A stretch of 53,812 nt of DNA from Promethearchaeota archaeon (lineage in GTDB: Archaea; Asgardarchaeota; Lokiarchaeia; Sigyniarchaeales; SOKP01). The stretch lies in contig JABCSY010000014.1 of the NCBI GenBank assembly GCA_018238625.1, forward strand, positions 1-53,812. The letters run 5' to 3'. The notes under the pieces were generated by a model. The model was given only the letters and a program-made list of their open reading frames with translations, did no database searches and was not told the DNA's origin. This document shows, one piece after another, positions 36,737 through 43,911 of the stretch (its first letter is position 1; each line of letters begins with the position of its first letter). Both the position numbers and the translations under genes were made by a program.

Positions 36737-36767
36737 AGTAAATAGAGTATTATTTGTGTTAATTTGG

Positions 36768-36880
36768 AAAAAAAGAAAAAGTGAGAGGAGTAAAAAAGAG
36801 TAAAAATAATGTGAAATGGCAGTTTTTTAAGTAATTATTTTATTTTTTTACTTTTTTTTGACTCCTCGTTTATATGAGTA
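36768..36880 (-). ncRNA. Candidate hairpin sRNA transcribed from the duplicated promoter
   Basis: Imperfect inverted repeat GAGGAGTAAAAAAGAGTAAAAA (from 36785) / TTTTTACTTTTTTTTGACTCCTC (to 36867); U-tract after it on the minus strand; TTTATAAA at 36905-36912 upstream. Confidence 0.35.
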
Positions 36881-36890
36881 GTATTTTTTT

Positions 36891-37007
36891 ATAATTTAGT
36901 ATTATTTATAAATAATATGAAAAATTTATAAAATAATATGAAGTCAGAAAATAAACCCTCCAAAATTTATATGGTGAAAAAGAACTACGAATAGCGTTAT
37001 TTAGTAG
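36891..37007. repeat. Copy 2 of the cbiM/cbiQ promoter repeat
   Basis: ATAATTTAGTATTATTTATAAA...TTTATAAAATAATATGAAGTC, 50/55 identical to copy 1 core. Confidence 0.85.
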
Positions 37008-37144
37008 AAAATATCAGATTGTATAAAGAAATCTTAATCATATTTAAAACAATTTGAATTATTTCCCTTCTTTATTCATATAAAAATTTGCGTTTTAATT
37101 AAATAAATAAATTTTTTAGCTCGGCTTTTATATTATTACATGGG

Positions 37145-37450
37145 AAAATGATGATGGAACATTGGCATATTCGAGGACACGTATGATAACCCGTGATTAC
37201 GTGTGCAAACTTATGCGTACATCCTGAGTTTATTAATCAACAATTTACTGCATCAAAAATGGGCTCTTAATCAAGCTAAGGTAATGTCCGTGCGATGAGA
37301 TTCGAGTCAGCACCCAGCGTGCAGATATGATTATGCCCCAAAAAGGCATAGAAATTAACGCCTAGCACGAGAGAACTTATTTGATTTTATGGGATAACCA
37401 TTAGATGATAAATTTGTGTTAGTGTCTTAGGCTACAATATATGCTGATTT
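37145..37450 (+). ncRNA. Candidate long structured ncRNA or box C/D sRNA cluster
   Basis: Hand-counted GC 116/300 versus 21/120 in the upstream flank; no long ORF; box C ATGATGA 37148-37154, CTGA at 37224 and 37444; several nested helices. Confidence 0.6.
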
Positions 37451-37484
37451 TATAACAACATAATTTTTTTTTAAGTGATAAGAA

Positions 37485-37976
37485 ATGGTTAATTTAAATA
37501 AATTTTGGATTTTAATATCAATTGGAACCTTAATCATAATGATTTCTTTGGTCTTTTTACCCATTATGGTACCTAAAAACCCAGATTTTCCCACAGGGAT
37601 TAATGGTTATATTTGGATGTGGGGATTTTGGATAGATGTAAGAGGAGAATACATGGGTATGCTATTAAATGTCTCGATATATGGGATAATATTTTCCATT
37701 ATAATTATTGTATTCGCAGTTAAAAATGCAAAATTATTATTGGAATTTAGAAAAACCCAAAATTTCACAAAGAAGATGAATAAAAACTTTTTATTATTAG
37801 CAATTTTAACTCTTGTTTTAACAGTTCTATGGTTGATATTTTTTATGATCATCCCGCTTGGTAGTACCTCTCTTTATGATTATCATGTTATTGGGTATGG
37901 ATTTGTTATTAATCTTATCGGAGGGGGATTAGTTCTTATAAACGCTATTATGATGAACAAGATAGTGAGAGAGTAA
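37485..37976 (+). CDS. 4-TM membrane protein, unknown function
   Basis: 163 aa with four hydrophobic helices, YIWMWG loop. Confidence 0.8.
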   Translation: MVNLNKFWILISIGTLIIMISLVFLPIMVPKNPDFPTGINGYIWMWGFWIDVRGEYMGMLLNVSIYGIIFSIIIIVFAVKNAKLLLEFRKTQNFTKKMNKNFLLLAILTLVLTVLWLIFFMIIPLGSTSLYDYHVIGYGFVINLIGGGLVLINAIMMNKIVRE

Positions 37977-38102
37977 GTCATGAATGATCTGATAATGGAA
38001 GGAATCTTTTCTAAAATTTGTGGAATTAGAGGCGGATTATGATGAACCACGCTGATTTTAAAAACAGTATATTCTTACTTCAAAAAGAGAAAAGAATATT
38101 CA

Positions 38103-39225: not shown

Positions 39226-40176
39226 TTATTTTTTCTTTAAATTAATTCCAAGATCTAAATTTTCTATAAGTTCGGAGAAGCGATTTCGAACGGTCACCTC
39301 TGTGACTTGACTGACTTTGGCTATTTTTCTTTGAGTTCTCCGTTCTTTAGTGAGAATTGATGCTGTATAAATTGCTGCGGCGCATAGTCCCGTTGGTCCG
39401 CGACCTGAGGTTAGCCCCCTTAATTCAGCCATTTTAATAATTTTTTTTGCTGTATTTTGGCAATCAGTAGATAATTCTAATTCAGATATAAATCGAGTAA
39501 GAAAATCTAACGCTTTAGTTGGGTTTAAATTTAGTTCTAATTCTCTTGAGATAAATCTAAAGGAACGTCCTATTTCTTTTTTATCAACACGAGCAACTTC
39601 TGCTATCTCGTTTAATGTACGCGGTACTTTAAACCTTCTACAAGCGGCATATAGACTAGCGGCTGCTACGCCTTCAATGCTTCTCCCTCGAATAAGATGA
39701 GCTCCAACAGCGTCTCTATAGATTTTTGCAGAACTTTCTCGCAGATTTTTCTGAAGATCAAGATTTGAAGCCATGCGATCTAATTCACTTAAAGCAAAAG
39801 TCAAGTTTCTTTCAGTAGCATCTGATACTCTAATCCTACTTTGCCATTTTCTCAAGCGATATATTTGACCTCTAATCTTAGCAGAGATTTCCTTCCCAAA
39901 GATGTCCTTATTCTTCCAGTCTATCATGGTGCTTAAGCCCTTGTCGTGGATCATATAAGTCATTGGAGCTCCTGTCCTAGTTCTTTTCTTTTTTTGATCT
40001 GCATCAAAAGCACGCCATTCTGGGCCCTGATCTATGTGTTTTTCTGAGTGCACTAAACCACATTCTTGACAAACTAATGAGCCTCTATTTTCGTCAAATA
40101 GAATATTTTTACCGCATTCGCTACAATTAATTTCCAAATTATTTTCTTCTGGGCTGCTTTGGTTCCAACTTGAAAT
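39226..40176 (-). CDS. tfb: Transcription initiation factor IIB (TFB)
   Basis: CSEC...CQECG Zn ribbon, [16 protein letters not shown], two cyclin repeats, VTEVTVRNR. The track start is 40137; probable ATT start at 40176 behind AGGTG. Confidence 0.96.
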
Positions 40177-40225: not shown

Positions 40226-40474
40226 TTAGTGTAATTTAGCGTAGATAGTATCATTTGGATTAAATTCTTTGTTGGGTAATATATTTATAGAAATAAATGG
40301 CAAATTTGTAGGGCCAAAAATTTCTTTAATATAGCCTATTTCTTCATATTTTTCCGTATAAACAGGTTTATGAAAAATTGCTTCGAGGTTTTTATCCCAC
40401 CTTTTAGCCCTAAAAATGTGATGTTTCTTAGAATTCCCGAGATAGGATAGATTTAGTTTAATGTATTTTTGCAA
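40226..40474 (-). CDS. gar1: Gar1/Naf1-like H/ACA RNP protein
   Basis: IGYIKEIFGPTNLPFISI matches the Gar1 IG.V.DIFGP...PY motif; gar1-tfb adjacency is common in archaea. Confidence 0.8.
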   Translation of the reverse strand: MQKYIKLNLSYLGNSKKHHIFRAKRWDKNLEAIFHKPVYTEKYEEIGYIKEIFGPTNLPFISINILPNKEFNPNDTIYAKLH

Positions 40475-41849: not shown

Positions 41850-43911
41850 TTTTACCTGTTTTTGAATTTTTTATATAATTTGAACCAACTTCTAGGTTCC
41901 CTAATCCAATTAAATTCTTTTTTTCTTTATCGAAAATAAGCGTAAAATCTTTTGGAACGAGATTTGGACTATAATTTATTATCCCAGGACGAAATAAGGT
42001 GTTTCCCTTAATTAATTGTCCGTCAAAAACCATATAATTCGTATTTTCATTTAAAGGTAATAGTCTATTCGCTCCTGAAAGATTCAATTCAATTTGTCCC
42101 GTACTAAAATTGAATTTTCCAAGATACTGTTTATTTATCAAGTCAAATATTTCTATTTGGTGCTTTCTTTCATTTTTTCTGGTCCTAATTCCATTAGAAC
42201 ATATTTTTTCTCCAGCTCCCGTTCCAAATTGATAATCCAATATTTTAATAAATTTACGAGTCCAACTCTTTGAGAAATTTTTATTTTTTGGAATAGGCTT
42301 TAGTGGTTTAAACGAATCTTTTAGGTCCCTAATACTATTCTCTAAAGAATTTAAGGATTCAATGGTAGTAAGATTGATTTTAACTCCCGTGAAGTAAAAT
42401 TTATTCTTTAGTTTTAATCGAGCGTTATCTATAATTTTTAAGTATCCCGGTTCTTTTAAATAACATATAATAGGTATATCCTTATCATATTTCTCCACTA
42501 ACTCAATTAGCATATTTGAAGCAATTGTTATTTCTTCATTATCCCAATCCCCCGTTACAGAAATATCATATGAATTTACGGGGTATATATTTTCAAGTTG
42601 TCTAGGAATGGCTCCTAGGGGAGATGTTAAAATTATTTCTTGAAAATCCGGAAAATCGCGAAATTTACGAATAATGCTATGAAATTTCTTGTGAGATTTC
42701 GACTCGGAGTACGGCTTCTTTGCCGAGCAAGGAAGTATAATAATCAGTTTTGTCCATGATTCAGGCGTAAAACTTTTTAACAATCTCTCCCGAAATTCTT
42801 GGAAATCTGGTCTATAATACGAAGATGGCCCAAAACATTTAATGATTTTATTCGCTTGAGTTATCGGAGTTTCAAGTTTTATCTCGTTAAAGTACTGTTT
42901 ATCTAAGACTTTTAACATAGAAATTATGTTCATGTCGTCAAACGAGGATTTTTCGACAAAACCTCGATAATCCTCCATTCGCAAATACAACTTTATTTTA
43001 TTCATGTAGGTGTATGCAGATATAATATTATGAAGAGTTAATTGTTCTATTTTTTCGGAAGAATATTTGTTTTCGCGGATATATTTTAATTTCCTTTTGC
43101 AAATAGAACACGGACAGGGTAAATATTTTAATTTATAAATGGGAAGTAAATGTTCTATAGTATCGTAGAAATTTTCAGAAGATAAATATAATAGATAGGA
43201 ACAATCAATTAAATCTACCCCTAAATAGACTAAAATTGGATAAAATTTCGGAATAATTCTCCCAGAAGCCATTATGACTAAATTATTGTCGAGTTCCCGC
43301 TTAATTTGAAAAATAACATTCAAAATATTTCTATATTTACTAAATACATCAAACAAATCGACTAAATTTAATATTCTTACGTTATTATTGTTCTTAATTA
43401 AAGGAAGATACAGATCAAATAATTCGGGATACTCAAAAATCTTAATAGATAAACCAAAATCTAAATTACGATATTGGTTTAAGATTTGGTTAGCATCAGT
43501 AATAAAATTGATAATTTCGTTTTTAGCGAATTCCCTATTTATGGTAGTAGTAGGAATATTAAACGGAATTAGGGGTATAATGTTATCTTCTGAAAATATA
43601 TCAATATTATTAGCTAAAATTTCTTTAAATTTTTCCATTGAACCATTGTGCTTATAGATAAAGCCAGTATGTTTAAATTTTTCTCGTAAAAACCCAATTT
43701 TCAAATAAAATTCTTTTAAGATCAAAAATACCTCGTGGTCTTCAAATTCCTCAAGAAAACTTATATGGTTTATTAAACTTTTCTTCATCGGAACGAGGAT
43801 ATTAGGTGTCGATATAAACCTTTTAGATTCCTTTGAACAAATAATTCTTCCTACTCTAGAAAATCCTATTCCTTTAGTTATTAATTCAAAAAAATAATTC
43901 ATGTTTTTCAA
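41821..43911 (-). CDS. arcS: Archaeosine synthase alpha subunit ArcS (TGT-like + DUF5591 + PUA)
   Basis: LVYLGVDLID, LPCSAKKPYSESKSH, TSPLGAIPRQLE..YP...YDI.VTGDW, C-terminal PUA-like region. Confidence 0.9.
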   Translation of the reverse strand: MKNMNYFFELITKGIGFSRVGRIICSKESKRFISTPNILVPMKKSLINHISFLEEFEDHEVFLILKEFYLKIGFLREKFKHTGFIYKHNGSMEKFKEILANNIDIFSEDNIIPLIPFNIPTTTINREFAKNEIINFITDANQILNQYRNLDFGLSIKIFEYPELFDLYLPLIKNNNNVRILNLVDLFDVFSKYRNILNVIFQIKRELDNNLVIMASGRIIPKFYPILVYLGVDLIDCSYLLYLSSENFYDTIEHLLPIYKLKYLPCPCSICKRKLKYIRENKYSSEKIEQLTLHNIISAYTYMNKIKLYLRMEDYRGFVEKSSFDDMNIISMLKVLDKQYFNEIKLETPITQANKIIKCFGPSSYYRPDFQEFRERLLKSFTPESWTKLIIILPCSAKKPYSESKSHKKFHSIIRKFRDFPDFQEIILTSPLGAIPRQLENIYPVNSYDISVTGDWDNEEITIASNMLIELVEKYDKDIPIICYLKEPGYLKIIDNARLKLKNKFYFTGVKINLTTIESLNSLENSIRDLKDSFKPLKPIPKNKNFSKSWTRKFIKILDYQFGTGAGEKICSNGIRTRKNERKHQIEIFDLINKQYLGKFNFSTGQIELNLSGANRLLPLNENTNYMVFDGQLIKGNTLFRPGIINYSPNLVPKDFTLIFDKEKKNLIGLGNLEVGSNYIKNSKTGKIANVYEKIK

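Follow-up and report, generated by a model that had tools for sequence, protein, structure and literature searches.

To our knowledge, H/ACA guide RNAs have been catalogued only in a few cultured Euryarchaeota and Crenarchaeota. The archaeal RNAs of this class are described as having one to three hairpins, a kink-turn (K-turn) within the upper stem and a spacing of 14–16 nt (PMC11077068), and the published rules place the target 14–15 nt from the ANA box and set helix H2 at 5–6 bp (PMC2377435); statements cited here to these two papers and to PMC8307265 refer to excerpts of the respective texts. For Asgard and Lokiarchaeota lineages, a literature search on H/ACA, snoRNA or L7Ae turned up no such description. 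Here we report an RNA gene of about 310 nt on the forward strand of a contig from Promethearchaeota archaeon (GenBank assembly GCA_018238625.1, contig JABCSY010000014.1), the whole 53,812-nt stretch of which was analyzed and is referred to below as the window. On comparative evidence this RNA is real and functional, and we interpret it, with a probability of roughly 0.7, as a three-module H/ACA-type guide for pseudouridylation with added clamping helices.

Conservation and covariation of the RNA

The gene is single-copy in its own genome and was recovered by blastn from 29 of the 36 other genomes of the same genus, at 70–96% identity over 300–350 nt; the seven genomes lacking a match are 71–92% complete. 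A blastn search of 24 genomes from other genera gave no convincing match. A covariance model (R1) representing the 3′ third of the RNA and trained on this one genus, which scores 96.8 bits at module 3 (the 3′-most hairpin unit) of the own locus, located one copy in 126 of the 151 genomes of the order, with counts of 118/131, 5/14, 1/1 and 1/4 in four families; under strict filters, 13 of the 123 genomes sampled from other orders of the phylum also yielded a copy. Inspection of the sequence upstream of the distant R1 matches revealed that the whole RNA is conserved, beyond its 3′ third. One genome of the same genus (G029) additionally carries an incomplete extra copy of the 3′ module (C17:42378–42459, 67 bits with R1), about 500 nt from the full copy at 42969–43052.

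Two alignments were analyzed, one of 29 same-genus sequences and one of 33 sequences from 20 genera and four families. In the latter, a nested model of 16 helices paired 87.9% of 2130 cells, compared with 35–44% in a control in which the partner strands were slid by 1–3 columns. Double changes were detected at 50 of the 67 pairs (222 cells), and none of 500 shuffles reached any of the five measures applied. Within the same-genus set, domain-wise pairing amounted to 98.6% in module 1 (with 59 double-change cells), 96.6% in module 2 and 92.5% in module 3. The minimum free energy was no better than that of dinucleotide shuffles (z −0.25 on the forward and 0.08 on the reverse strand). The single sequence carries no thermodynamic signal, and the structure is shown by comparison among genomes.

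The model comprises three arms, each consisting of an outer helix, an internal loop with an ANA box, a lower stem, a large internal loop termed the pocket, an upper stem and a K-turn or K-loop. With lower stem, pocket, upper stem, K-turn/K-loop and ANA box recurring three times, the arms follow the plan of archaeal H/ACA guides, and covariation supports the lower stem, the two-stranded pocket and the upper stem in all three hairpins. The G and A of four K-turn/K-loop motifs were kept in 27–33 of the 33 sequences, on both strands in all three modules, and binding of L7Ae, proposed in a preliminary description of this DNA, is very likely on that account. The ANA boxes (ACA 37219–21, AUA 37325–27 and ACA 37434–36) retain both A positions in 30–33 of the 33 sequences next to variable spacers, the middle base being C in 23–27. 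The spacing between the 3′ pocket motif and the ANA box is fixed in all modules across the phylum (43 sequences). The outer helices have had their sequence wholly replaced between families while retaining complementarity.

Modules, clamp and outer helices

In module 1, the pocket strands are UUCGAGGA (37170–77) and UGCAAACU (37204–11), and the K-loop reads UGAU...UGAU. The pocket motif CGAGG is invariant (33/33), and GCA lies 14–15 nt before A[CU]A in 37 of the 43 phylum sequences, an arrangement that occurred in 14 of 860 shuffles. The upper stem of 6 bp agrees with the rule of 5–6 bp from pocket to K-turn. Module 1 is thus in accordance with both published rules, whereas module 2 agrees with the distance rule only and module 3 with the rules roughly.

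Beneath module 1, the two strands at its base form a further K-turn, which fits the general plan of a canonical (C) stem, a 3-nt bulge, tandem G·A/A·G pairs and a non-canonical (NC) stem, the sheared geometry being predicted. Here AAAU 37146–49 pairs with GUUU 37228–31 and GGA 37156–58 with UCC 37222–24, enclosing G37153·A37227, A37154·G37226 and a U·U. Both stems covary: the C-stem pair beside the bulge (alignment pair 16–122) is CG in 11 sequences, UA in 11 and UG in 7, and the NC stem exhibits GC, GU and AU variants. This base K-turn is an extra C/D-like clamp under module 1 and probably a fourth L7Ae site. Because its D-like box has no conserved guide upstream, we regard the element as a putative L7Ae site and not as a methylation guide.

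Module 2 is enclosed by the P-link helix, whose counterparts in other families, identified by eye, are GUAUUUUCU/AGAAAAUAC and UUGCAA/UUGCAA. Its K-turn is of the standard type (GC/GC, bulge GAU, GA/AA, GAU/AUC), with covarying stems. On the 3′ pocket strand, a conserved ACCC (37312–15) is located 13 nt before the ANA box, or 14 nt with the preceding base, in 34 of the 43 sequences (51 of 860 shuffles), and the AUA of this module is replaced by ACA in most relatives. A possible helix between GGG 37261–63 and CCC 37313–15 was paired at 87.6% within the order; it is lost in two families in which ACCC is replaced (by eye) and was kept out of the model.

The pocket of module 3 is formed by GAGAGAA (37369–75) and UGUUA (37417–21), with GA motifs at 37383–84 and 37407–08. 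Alignment pair 293–353 in this module passes from C-G to U-A via U·G (CG 26, UG 4, UA 3), and GUUA is found 16 nt before ACA in 30 of the 43 sequences, compared with 64 of 860 shuffles. The upper stem has 6–7 bp including U·U mismatches, roughly in line with the 5–6 bp rule, and its motif is K-turn-like only, with an extra U. The outer helix P3 (GCAUA 37346–50/UAUGC 37440–44) was paired in 81.2% of cells with double changes at all five pairs, and has counterparts in other families (GCAUAGGGUU/AACCCUAUGC, GCAUGGGA/UCCCAUGC and CCGGUUGAUAC/GUAUCAACCGG). Among 30 distant homologues, 16 had a duplex flanking module 3 that surpassed 195 or more of 200 shuffles, and both P3 strands are jointly missing from four genomes of the same genus and from one of another. 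The helix P0 likewise appears in other genera in longer, compensated forms (by eye), namely UAGGGA/UCCCUA, GGGAAAA/UUUUCCC, AGGGA/UCCCU, CGGGA/UCCCG and AUGGGG/CCCCAU. The coordinates of these elements are collected in the table.

Table. Features of the RNA locus, in window coordinates
Feature	Position	Strand	Details
Promoter-like element	37105–37119	+	A-rich stretch resembling a B recognition element (BRE) and T-rich TATA-like box; 23–37 nt before GGG 37142
P0, 5′ strand	37141–37144	+	UGGG, pairs with CCCA 37337–40; 89.6% of cells paired
Whole RNA gene	37142–37451	+	GGG to U-run after 3′ tail, ~310 nt; boundaries from conservation, ends predicted
Base K-turn, bulged strand	37146–37158	+	C stem AAAU, bulge GAU, G37153 A37154, U37155, NC stem GGA; G and A each in 32/33
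Module 1	37165–37221	+	Lower stem GCAUA/UAUGC, upper stem CACGUA/UACGUG, K-loop 37184–97, spacer GU, ACA 37219–21
Base K-turn, other strand	37222–37231	+	UCC, U, G37226 A37227, GUUU; internal D-like CUGA 37224–27; G in 31/33, A in 29/33
P-link, 5′ strand	37234–37239	+	UAAUCA, pairs with UGAUUA 37328–33, encloses module 2; 91.9% paired, double changes at 4/6 pairs
Module 2	37248–37327	+	Lower stem CUGCAU/GUGCAG, upper stem GGCUC/GAGUC, NC stem AUC/GAU, K-turn GC-GAU-GA 37292–98
Central junction	37328–37350	+	P-link 3′ strand 37328–33, P0 3′ strand CCCA 37337–40, P3 5′ strand GCAUA 37346–50
Module 3	37360–37436	+	Lower stem GCCUA/UAGGC and GCAC/GUGU, upper stem 37376–82/37410–16, ACA 37434–36
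3′ tail	37440–37451	+	UAUGC (P3 3′ strand), CUGA 37444–47 (unconserved), U-run UUUU 37448–51
gar1 (H/ACA ribonucleoprotein subunit)	40238–40375	−	85-aa frame adjoining TFB; Pfam Gar1 28.8 bits, just below the cut-off of 29.3

Two loci from other families of the phylum depart from this layout. In one of them (L093, genome G208), a 10-bp outer helix (GCCCAGCCGG/CCGGCUGGGC) surrounds a module-3-like hairpin and is followed by UACA, so that a larger H/ACA unit may be present there with the outer helix for its lower stem. The other (L089, genome G252) has the K-turn clamp and modules 1 and 3, with a 17-bp outer helix, and is devoid of module 2, showing that members of the RNA family differ in how many modules they have.

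The preliminary description, made from the letters of the window without database searches, had reported a structured RNA, unrecognised and about 300 nt long, that has a promoter of its own and lies in a GC-rich island, and this part of the description holds. The GC content is 0.38–0.46 across 37150–37399 versus 0.16–0.23 in the flank at 36750–37149 (100-nt windows), no open reading frame (ORF) of at least 40 aa covers 37140–37426 on either strand, and no Rfam family matched anywhere in the window at gathering score. When Rfam was searched at E ≤ 10, the sole match was to sR46 (12.2 bits, E 5.1), which we took as chance. The statement that signatures of RNase P RNA, signal recognition particle (SRP) RNA, tRNA and cobalamin riboswitches are lacking also held: Rfam was empty at gathering score, ARAGORN found no tRNA, and this genome carries its RNase P RNA (115 bits) and its SRP RNA on other contigs. 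The latter (G000:C176:962–1274, minus strand) scored 54 bits against a gathering score of 96.5 for Rfam Archaea_SRP and, judged by this score, is divergent.

The helices that had been found by hand fared differently. CACGTA/TACGTG and CTGCAT/GTGCAG showed double changes at four and five of their six pairs, respectively, and GGCTC..AATC/GATT.GAGTC was also supported by covariation. The proposed closing helix (37162–70/37439–47) was paired in 55.7% of cells in the 33 sequences and is displaced, both of its strands being taken up by two covarying helices; the 3′ tail pairs with GGCAUA 37345–50. The AATCA strand of AATCAA/TTGATT was found to pair with UGAUUA 37328–33, and AGGACAC/GTGTCTT and GTGTGCA/TGCGTAC clash with covarying helices. 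The hairpin TATGCC/GGCATA at the central junction, K-turn-like only and with an extra U, was paired at 71.7% and may be an alternative fold to the combination of P0 and the module 3 outer helix. The box C ATGATGA (37148–54) is real and forms the C/D-type K-turn at the base, with the internal CUGA and not a 3′-terminal box as its partner. The CTGA at 37444–47 is present, yet the same-genus homologues lack it in 4/29 cases and carry it altered in about 8/29. Lastly, the TATA-like TTTTATAT does occur at 37126–33 but is less conserved, and would start the RNA inside the conserved K-turn.

The A/T block at 37105–37119 keeps its fixed distance both in the same-genus homologues and across genera of the order, and conservation begins at GGG 37142–44. 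From these boundaries we infer an independent transcription unit of about 310 nt (37142–37451) with its own promoter, and the U-run at 37448–51 is a probable terminator; a bacterial-type promoter and terminator scan was set aside as inapplicable to archaea. In libraries labelled as RNA, contigs of 198–317 nt overlap the element at 85–99% likeness, although DNA is possible there and these contigs are no evidence of transcription. They correspond to 37151–37349, 37160–37359, 37106–37266 and 37219–37452 in four runs and show neither ends nor strand, and the flanks of relatives would not match library contigs at 85–99% likeness. Metatranscriptome runs contain 16–29% of the sampled words. Upstream of the promoter, an AT-rich stretch at about 36740–37095 (~360 bp, GC 0.16–0.23) separates it from the stop codon of an ABC ATPase gene and is common to one relative only (L006), whereas the end of the ATPase gene is about 20–40 nt from the promoter block in most relatives.

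Predicted targets in ribosomal RNA

The assembly contains the 16S gene of this genome and lacks the 23S gene; the 23S of a same-genus genome was used instead. The module 1 pocket motifs CGAGG and GCA(A), both invariant (33/33), complement UUGC-UU-CCUCGA at 23S 2710–2721, with 4+6 bp formed around an unpaired UU, and the target U, at 2714, lies five nt 5′ of the C that precedes a conserved GAUG. We take this GAUG, through our own assumption about its place in Escherichia coli numbering, to put the preceding C at yeast 5-methylcytidine m5C2870, from which it follows that the target U would be yeast Psi2865 and E. coli position 2496. Likewise, positions 2457, 2580 and 2605, which we take to be those of RluE, RluC and RluB, presumably give an offset of 92 for Pyrococcus abyssi, so that E. 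coli 2496 would equal P. abyssi 2588. Of these three positions 2457 alone is confirmed in a published source (PMC11077068), whose Table 1 also gives yeast numbering as that of E. coli plus 369, and a correspondence between three Pab35 sites and those of E. coli RluE, RluC and RluB is stated in PMC2377435. Yeast Psi2865 is guided by snR46 and conserved in human (PMC8307265), and P. abyssi Psi2588 is the verified target of motif 1 of Pab40, conserved in eukaryotes (PMC2377435, Table 1). It is by its position that the match is informative, and module 1 thus probably targets the 23S counterpart of yeast Psi2865 and P. abyssi Psi2588, near the peptidyl-transferase centre.

For module 2, ACCC(AG) complements CUGGGU at 23S 2828–33, with UUU next to it, a 7-mer match of this kind being expected by chance. 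That UUU, which includes the equivalent of P. abyssi 2678, the site proposed for motif 2 of Pf7 and Afu4 (PMC2377435), follows a conserved GGGU and is a candidate target (E. coli 2584–2586, in numbering that is partly our assumption). For module 3, helix 69 offers UAAC and CUCUC in its loop and stem (23S 2138–2151) as complements of GUUA and GAGAG, leaving a 3×3 mismatch, and a rival site (UAGC-UG-GUUCUC, 23S 1004–1015) offers 4+6 bp and fails in two families with different pockets (by eye); the candidate target of this module is accordingly either the helix-69 loop or 23S position 1008. Strict bipartite scans of the own 16S and the same-genus 23S for modules 2 and 3 gave nothing above the shuffle range, and no target was found among the 12 tRNAs returned by aragorn, an incomplete set. 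Two further candidates were rejected: the 7-mers at 23S 2806 and 2827 that are complementary to the two strands of module 2, which stand in the wrong order for an H/ACA pocket and have a length expected by chance, and a 16S site at 565 (GGGUAGCU), which falls within a variable helix and misfits the relatives.

In the 23S of one genome (G016, locus L034), two conserved landmarks of the peptidyl-transferase region, at 2714 and 2833, are 119 nt apart, the matching spacing in E. coli being 88 nt. Taken at that value, the comparison suggests that part of domain V is expanded by about 31 nt in this 23S.

Gene neighborhood, alternative explanations and known relatives

The conserved cluster downstream of the RNA consists of two roadblock/LC7 genes, TFB and gar1, with gar1 located 2.8 kb from the RNA in the window. 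The closest relatives of the TFB neighbor (39226–40137, minus strand) are found in metagenome-assembled genomes of Promethearchaeota/Promethearchaeia. Among the 123 genomes of the order with both RNA and Gar1 matches, the two share a contig in 109 and are separated by no more than 10 kb in 108 and no more than 5 kb in 100, with a median distance of 2.5 kb. Outside the order, five genomes were searched, and gar1 was 31–33 kb away in two, on another contig in two and without a Gar1 match in one. The genome also encodes the other H/ACA proteins, Cbf5 (DKCLD domain, 74.5 bits), Nop10 (52.8) and L7Ae (83.6). The linkage to gar1 provides modest support for the H/ACA assignment, as these genomes are related and hence not independent. 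In such a guide, each module would assemble L7Ae on its K-turn and Cbf5–Nop10–Gar1 on the lower stem and ANA box, the pocket strands would pair with rRNA on either side of a uridine, and Cbf5 would convert this uridine to pseudouridine.

Several observations weigh against the assignment to guides. The linkage to gar1 may be inherited gene order within the order, and none of the four genomes with a Gar1 match outside it had gar1 within 10 kb of the RNA. As to geometry, the K-turn of module 2 sits about 11–12 bp above the pocket (counting an internal loop) and not 5–6 bp, the ANA distance in module 3 is 16 nt, becoming 14 only when a 2-nt bulge in the lower stem is discounted, and the lower stems have 5–6 bp where the Pyrococcus descriptor demands at least 7. 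In the excerpted H/ACA literature we found neither a helix opening directly 3′ of the ANA box nor a module seated on a K-turn clamp, and helices that start directly after the ANA box might clash with Cbf5 binding. Judged by statistics only, the target pairing of module 1 is weak and not significant, with a score of 10 where the best scores from 200 shuffled rRNAs have their 95th percentile at 10.5. A bipartite target is missing for module 2, nothing at the CUGGGU site fitting the 5′ pocket strand, and module 3 has two competing sites, each with mismatches or a UNN gap. The targets follow the same order along the RNA as in Pab40, Pf7 and Afu4, which suggests orthology, from target positions only.

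The rival explanations differ widely in what they can accommodate. That the element might be a decayed protein gene, a remnant of a mobile element or a compositional accident is in keeping with a fold energy no better than that of shuffles, and becomes next to impossible given compensatory changes at 50 of the 67 pairs in a single-copy, syntenic element devoid of ORFs of at least 40 aa. A cis-regulatory leader or riboswitch for the downstream four-transmembrane (4-TM) ORF (37485–37976, 163 aa) or for the Co/Ni (ECF-type) transporter, as had been suggested from the position between the ABC ATPase gene and this ORF, is of equally negligible probability. The ORF was found downstream of the RNA in 0/29 same-genus loci, being carried by a lineage-specific insertion of about 620 bp (~37455–38075) after which the relatives resume at the counterpart of 38078, and because of this absence the RNA is not its leader. 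In 25/29 of these loci, a convergent roadblock/LC7 gene ends within a few tens of nt of the RNA, and the upstream ECF/Cbi-type ABC ATPase gene is present in only 19/29. Besides having a conserved promoter-like element and a U-run of its own, the RNA occurs in other gene contexts across the phylum and matches no riboswitch family. Also very improbable is one long C/D-class RNA, either a methylation guide or a relative of U3, stretching from box C to a terminal box D. Both boxes exist and the 5′ end does contain a K-turn of the C/D type, but box C pairs internally, about 12/29 same-genus homologues lack the terminal CUGA or carry it altered, and the terminal helix is the poorly paired one discussed above. 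Moreover, the sequence upstream of the D-like box is a stem, a variable dinucleotide spacer and ACA with no conserved guide, C′/D′ boxes in C/D spacing are absent, and the U3-like version encounters the lack of any 5′ extension or domain, conservation beginning 4 nt before the K-turn stem. The anatomy is instead that of three H/ACA-type modules.

Two explanations retain most of this anatomy and assign it another function. An RNA with the H/ACA-type fold and the same proteins could hold segments of 23S as a chaperone of rRNA folding or processing without modifying them, much as the eukaryotic snR30/U17 acts on 18S. Such a role would account for pockets that are invariant across the order and yet provide a clean bipartite match for module 1 only, for the K-turn spacing rule broken by module 2 and for the closed, clamped architecture (P0, P-link and P3), which suggests a single rigid particle; we nevertheless judge it unlikely, as the spacings from the 3′ pocket motif to the ANA box are fixed at values typical of catalytic guides and Psi is known at the module 1 site from both yeast and P. 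abyssi (PMC8307265, PMC2377435). The RNA could alternatively belong to some other ribonucleoprotein scaffolded by L7Ae and unrelated to Cbf5, the ANA boxes and pockets serving other proteins or tertiary contacts. The four K-turn motifs, the lack of an Rfam family and the placement of the ANA boxes inside internal loops instead of free tails would all suit it, and it is made quite unlikely by the threefold repetition of a module with H/ACA geometry, by the complementarity of pocket 1 to a known H/ACA target and by gar1 nearby.

The three-module H/ACA guide thus remains the preferred explanation. It can be extended, speculatively and with considerable doubt on our part, to the core of a single rigid multi-enzyme particle present across Promethearchaeota, in which three Cbf5 modules would be locked together by the outer helices, P0 and the extra L7Ae-bound C/D-type clamp. 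By holding nascent 23S sites at once, such a particle would engage the peptidyl-transferase helices and helix 69 and combine the functions of modifier and assembly chaperone. Its closed hairpin–ANA–helix units and its combination of C/D and H/ACA elements would then be archaeal forerunners of the eukaryotic hairpin-hinge-hairpin H/ACA small nucleolar ribonucleoproteins (snoRNPs) and of the composite small Cajal body-specific RNAs (scaRNAs).

The family can be modelled across an archaeal phylum, which makes it a missing housekeeping RNA for annotators and a candidate for Rfam. The predicted 23S pseudouridines, one of which would be common to yeast, human and Pyrococcus, render an ancestral rRNA modification testable in the closest archaeal relatives of eukaryotes. 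The outer helices and the C/D-type clamp raise the matter of how Cbf5 reads an ACA outside a free tail, and may hint at the origin of multi-hairpin and composite snoRNPs. Were the assignments of proteins and targets to prove wrong, a four-K-turn RNA spread over a whole order and without a known function would be more interesting still.

Eukaryotic composite C/D–H/ACA scaRNAs of the U85 type have C/D elements that bracket an H/ACA structure on one RNA. By comparison, the C/D-like element described here has no visible methylation guide and is probably an L7Ae site only. A closer archaeal parallel is provided by Pab21 and Pf1, which combine an H/ACA hairpin and a C/D box motif on one transcript (PMC2377435); as far as the excerpt goes, Pab21 is a single hairpin occurring in forms with and without the C/D motif, whereas here a C/D-like K-turn closes module 1 throughout the order. 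Yeast snR46 shares the predicted target uridine near the peptidyl-transferase centre (PMC8307265) and is likened to module 1 by target only, as it is a eukaryotic two-hairpin H/ACA snoRNA without K-turns. Departure from the classic plan is also known from the atypical H/ACA RNAs of Sulfolobus and Pyrobaculum, which are functional all the same, with working guide–target duplexes of 8–11 bp that include bulges (PMC11077068). According to the excerpted text, those RNAs lack the lower stem and ACA, whereas the RNA described here keeps both and adds helices.

The strongest resemblance is to Pab40, Pf7, Pho40 and Afu4, which likewise bear three H/ACA motifs per RNA, an ANA box and a K-turn or K-loop being part of every motif (PMC2377435). 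By numbering, the target of Pab40 motif 1 (P. abyssi 23S 2588) is the predicted site of module 1, site 2678 proposed for motif 2 of Pf7 and Afu4 falls in the UUU beside the module 2 complement, and Pab40 motif 3 has its target in helix 69, to which pocket 3 is partly complementary (PMC2377435). The RNA of Promethearchaeota differs from this group in its length of about 310 nt, in the outer helices after the ANA boxes, in the C/D-like K-turn, in P0 and in the distant K-turn of module 2. Relative to the archaeal H/ACA sRNAs described in the excerpts cited, the new features are an outer helix directly after each ANA box, a K-turn clamp at module 1 (in the order) and the helix P0, which ties the 5′ end of the RNA to its centre.

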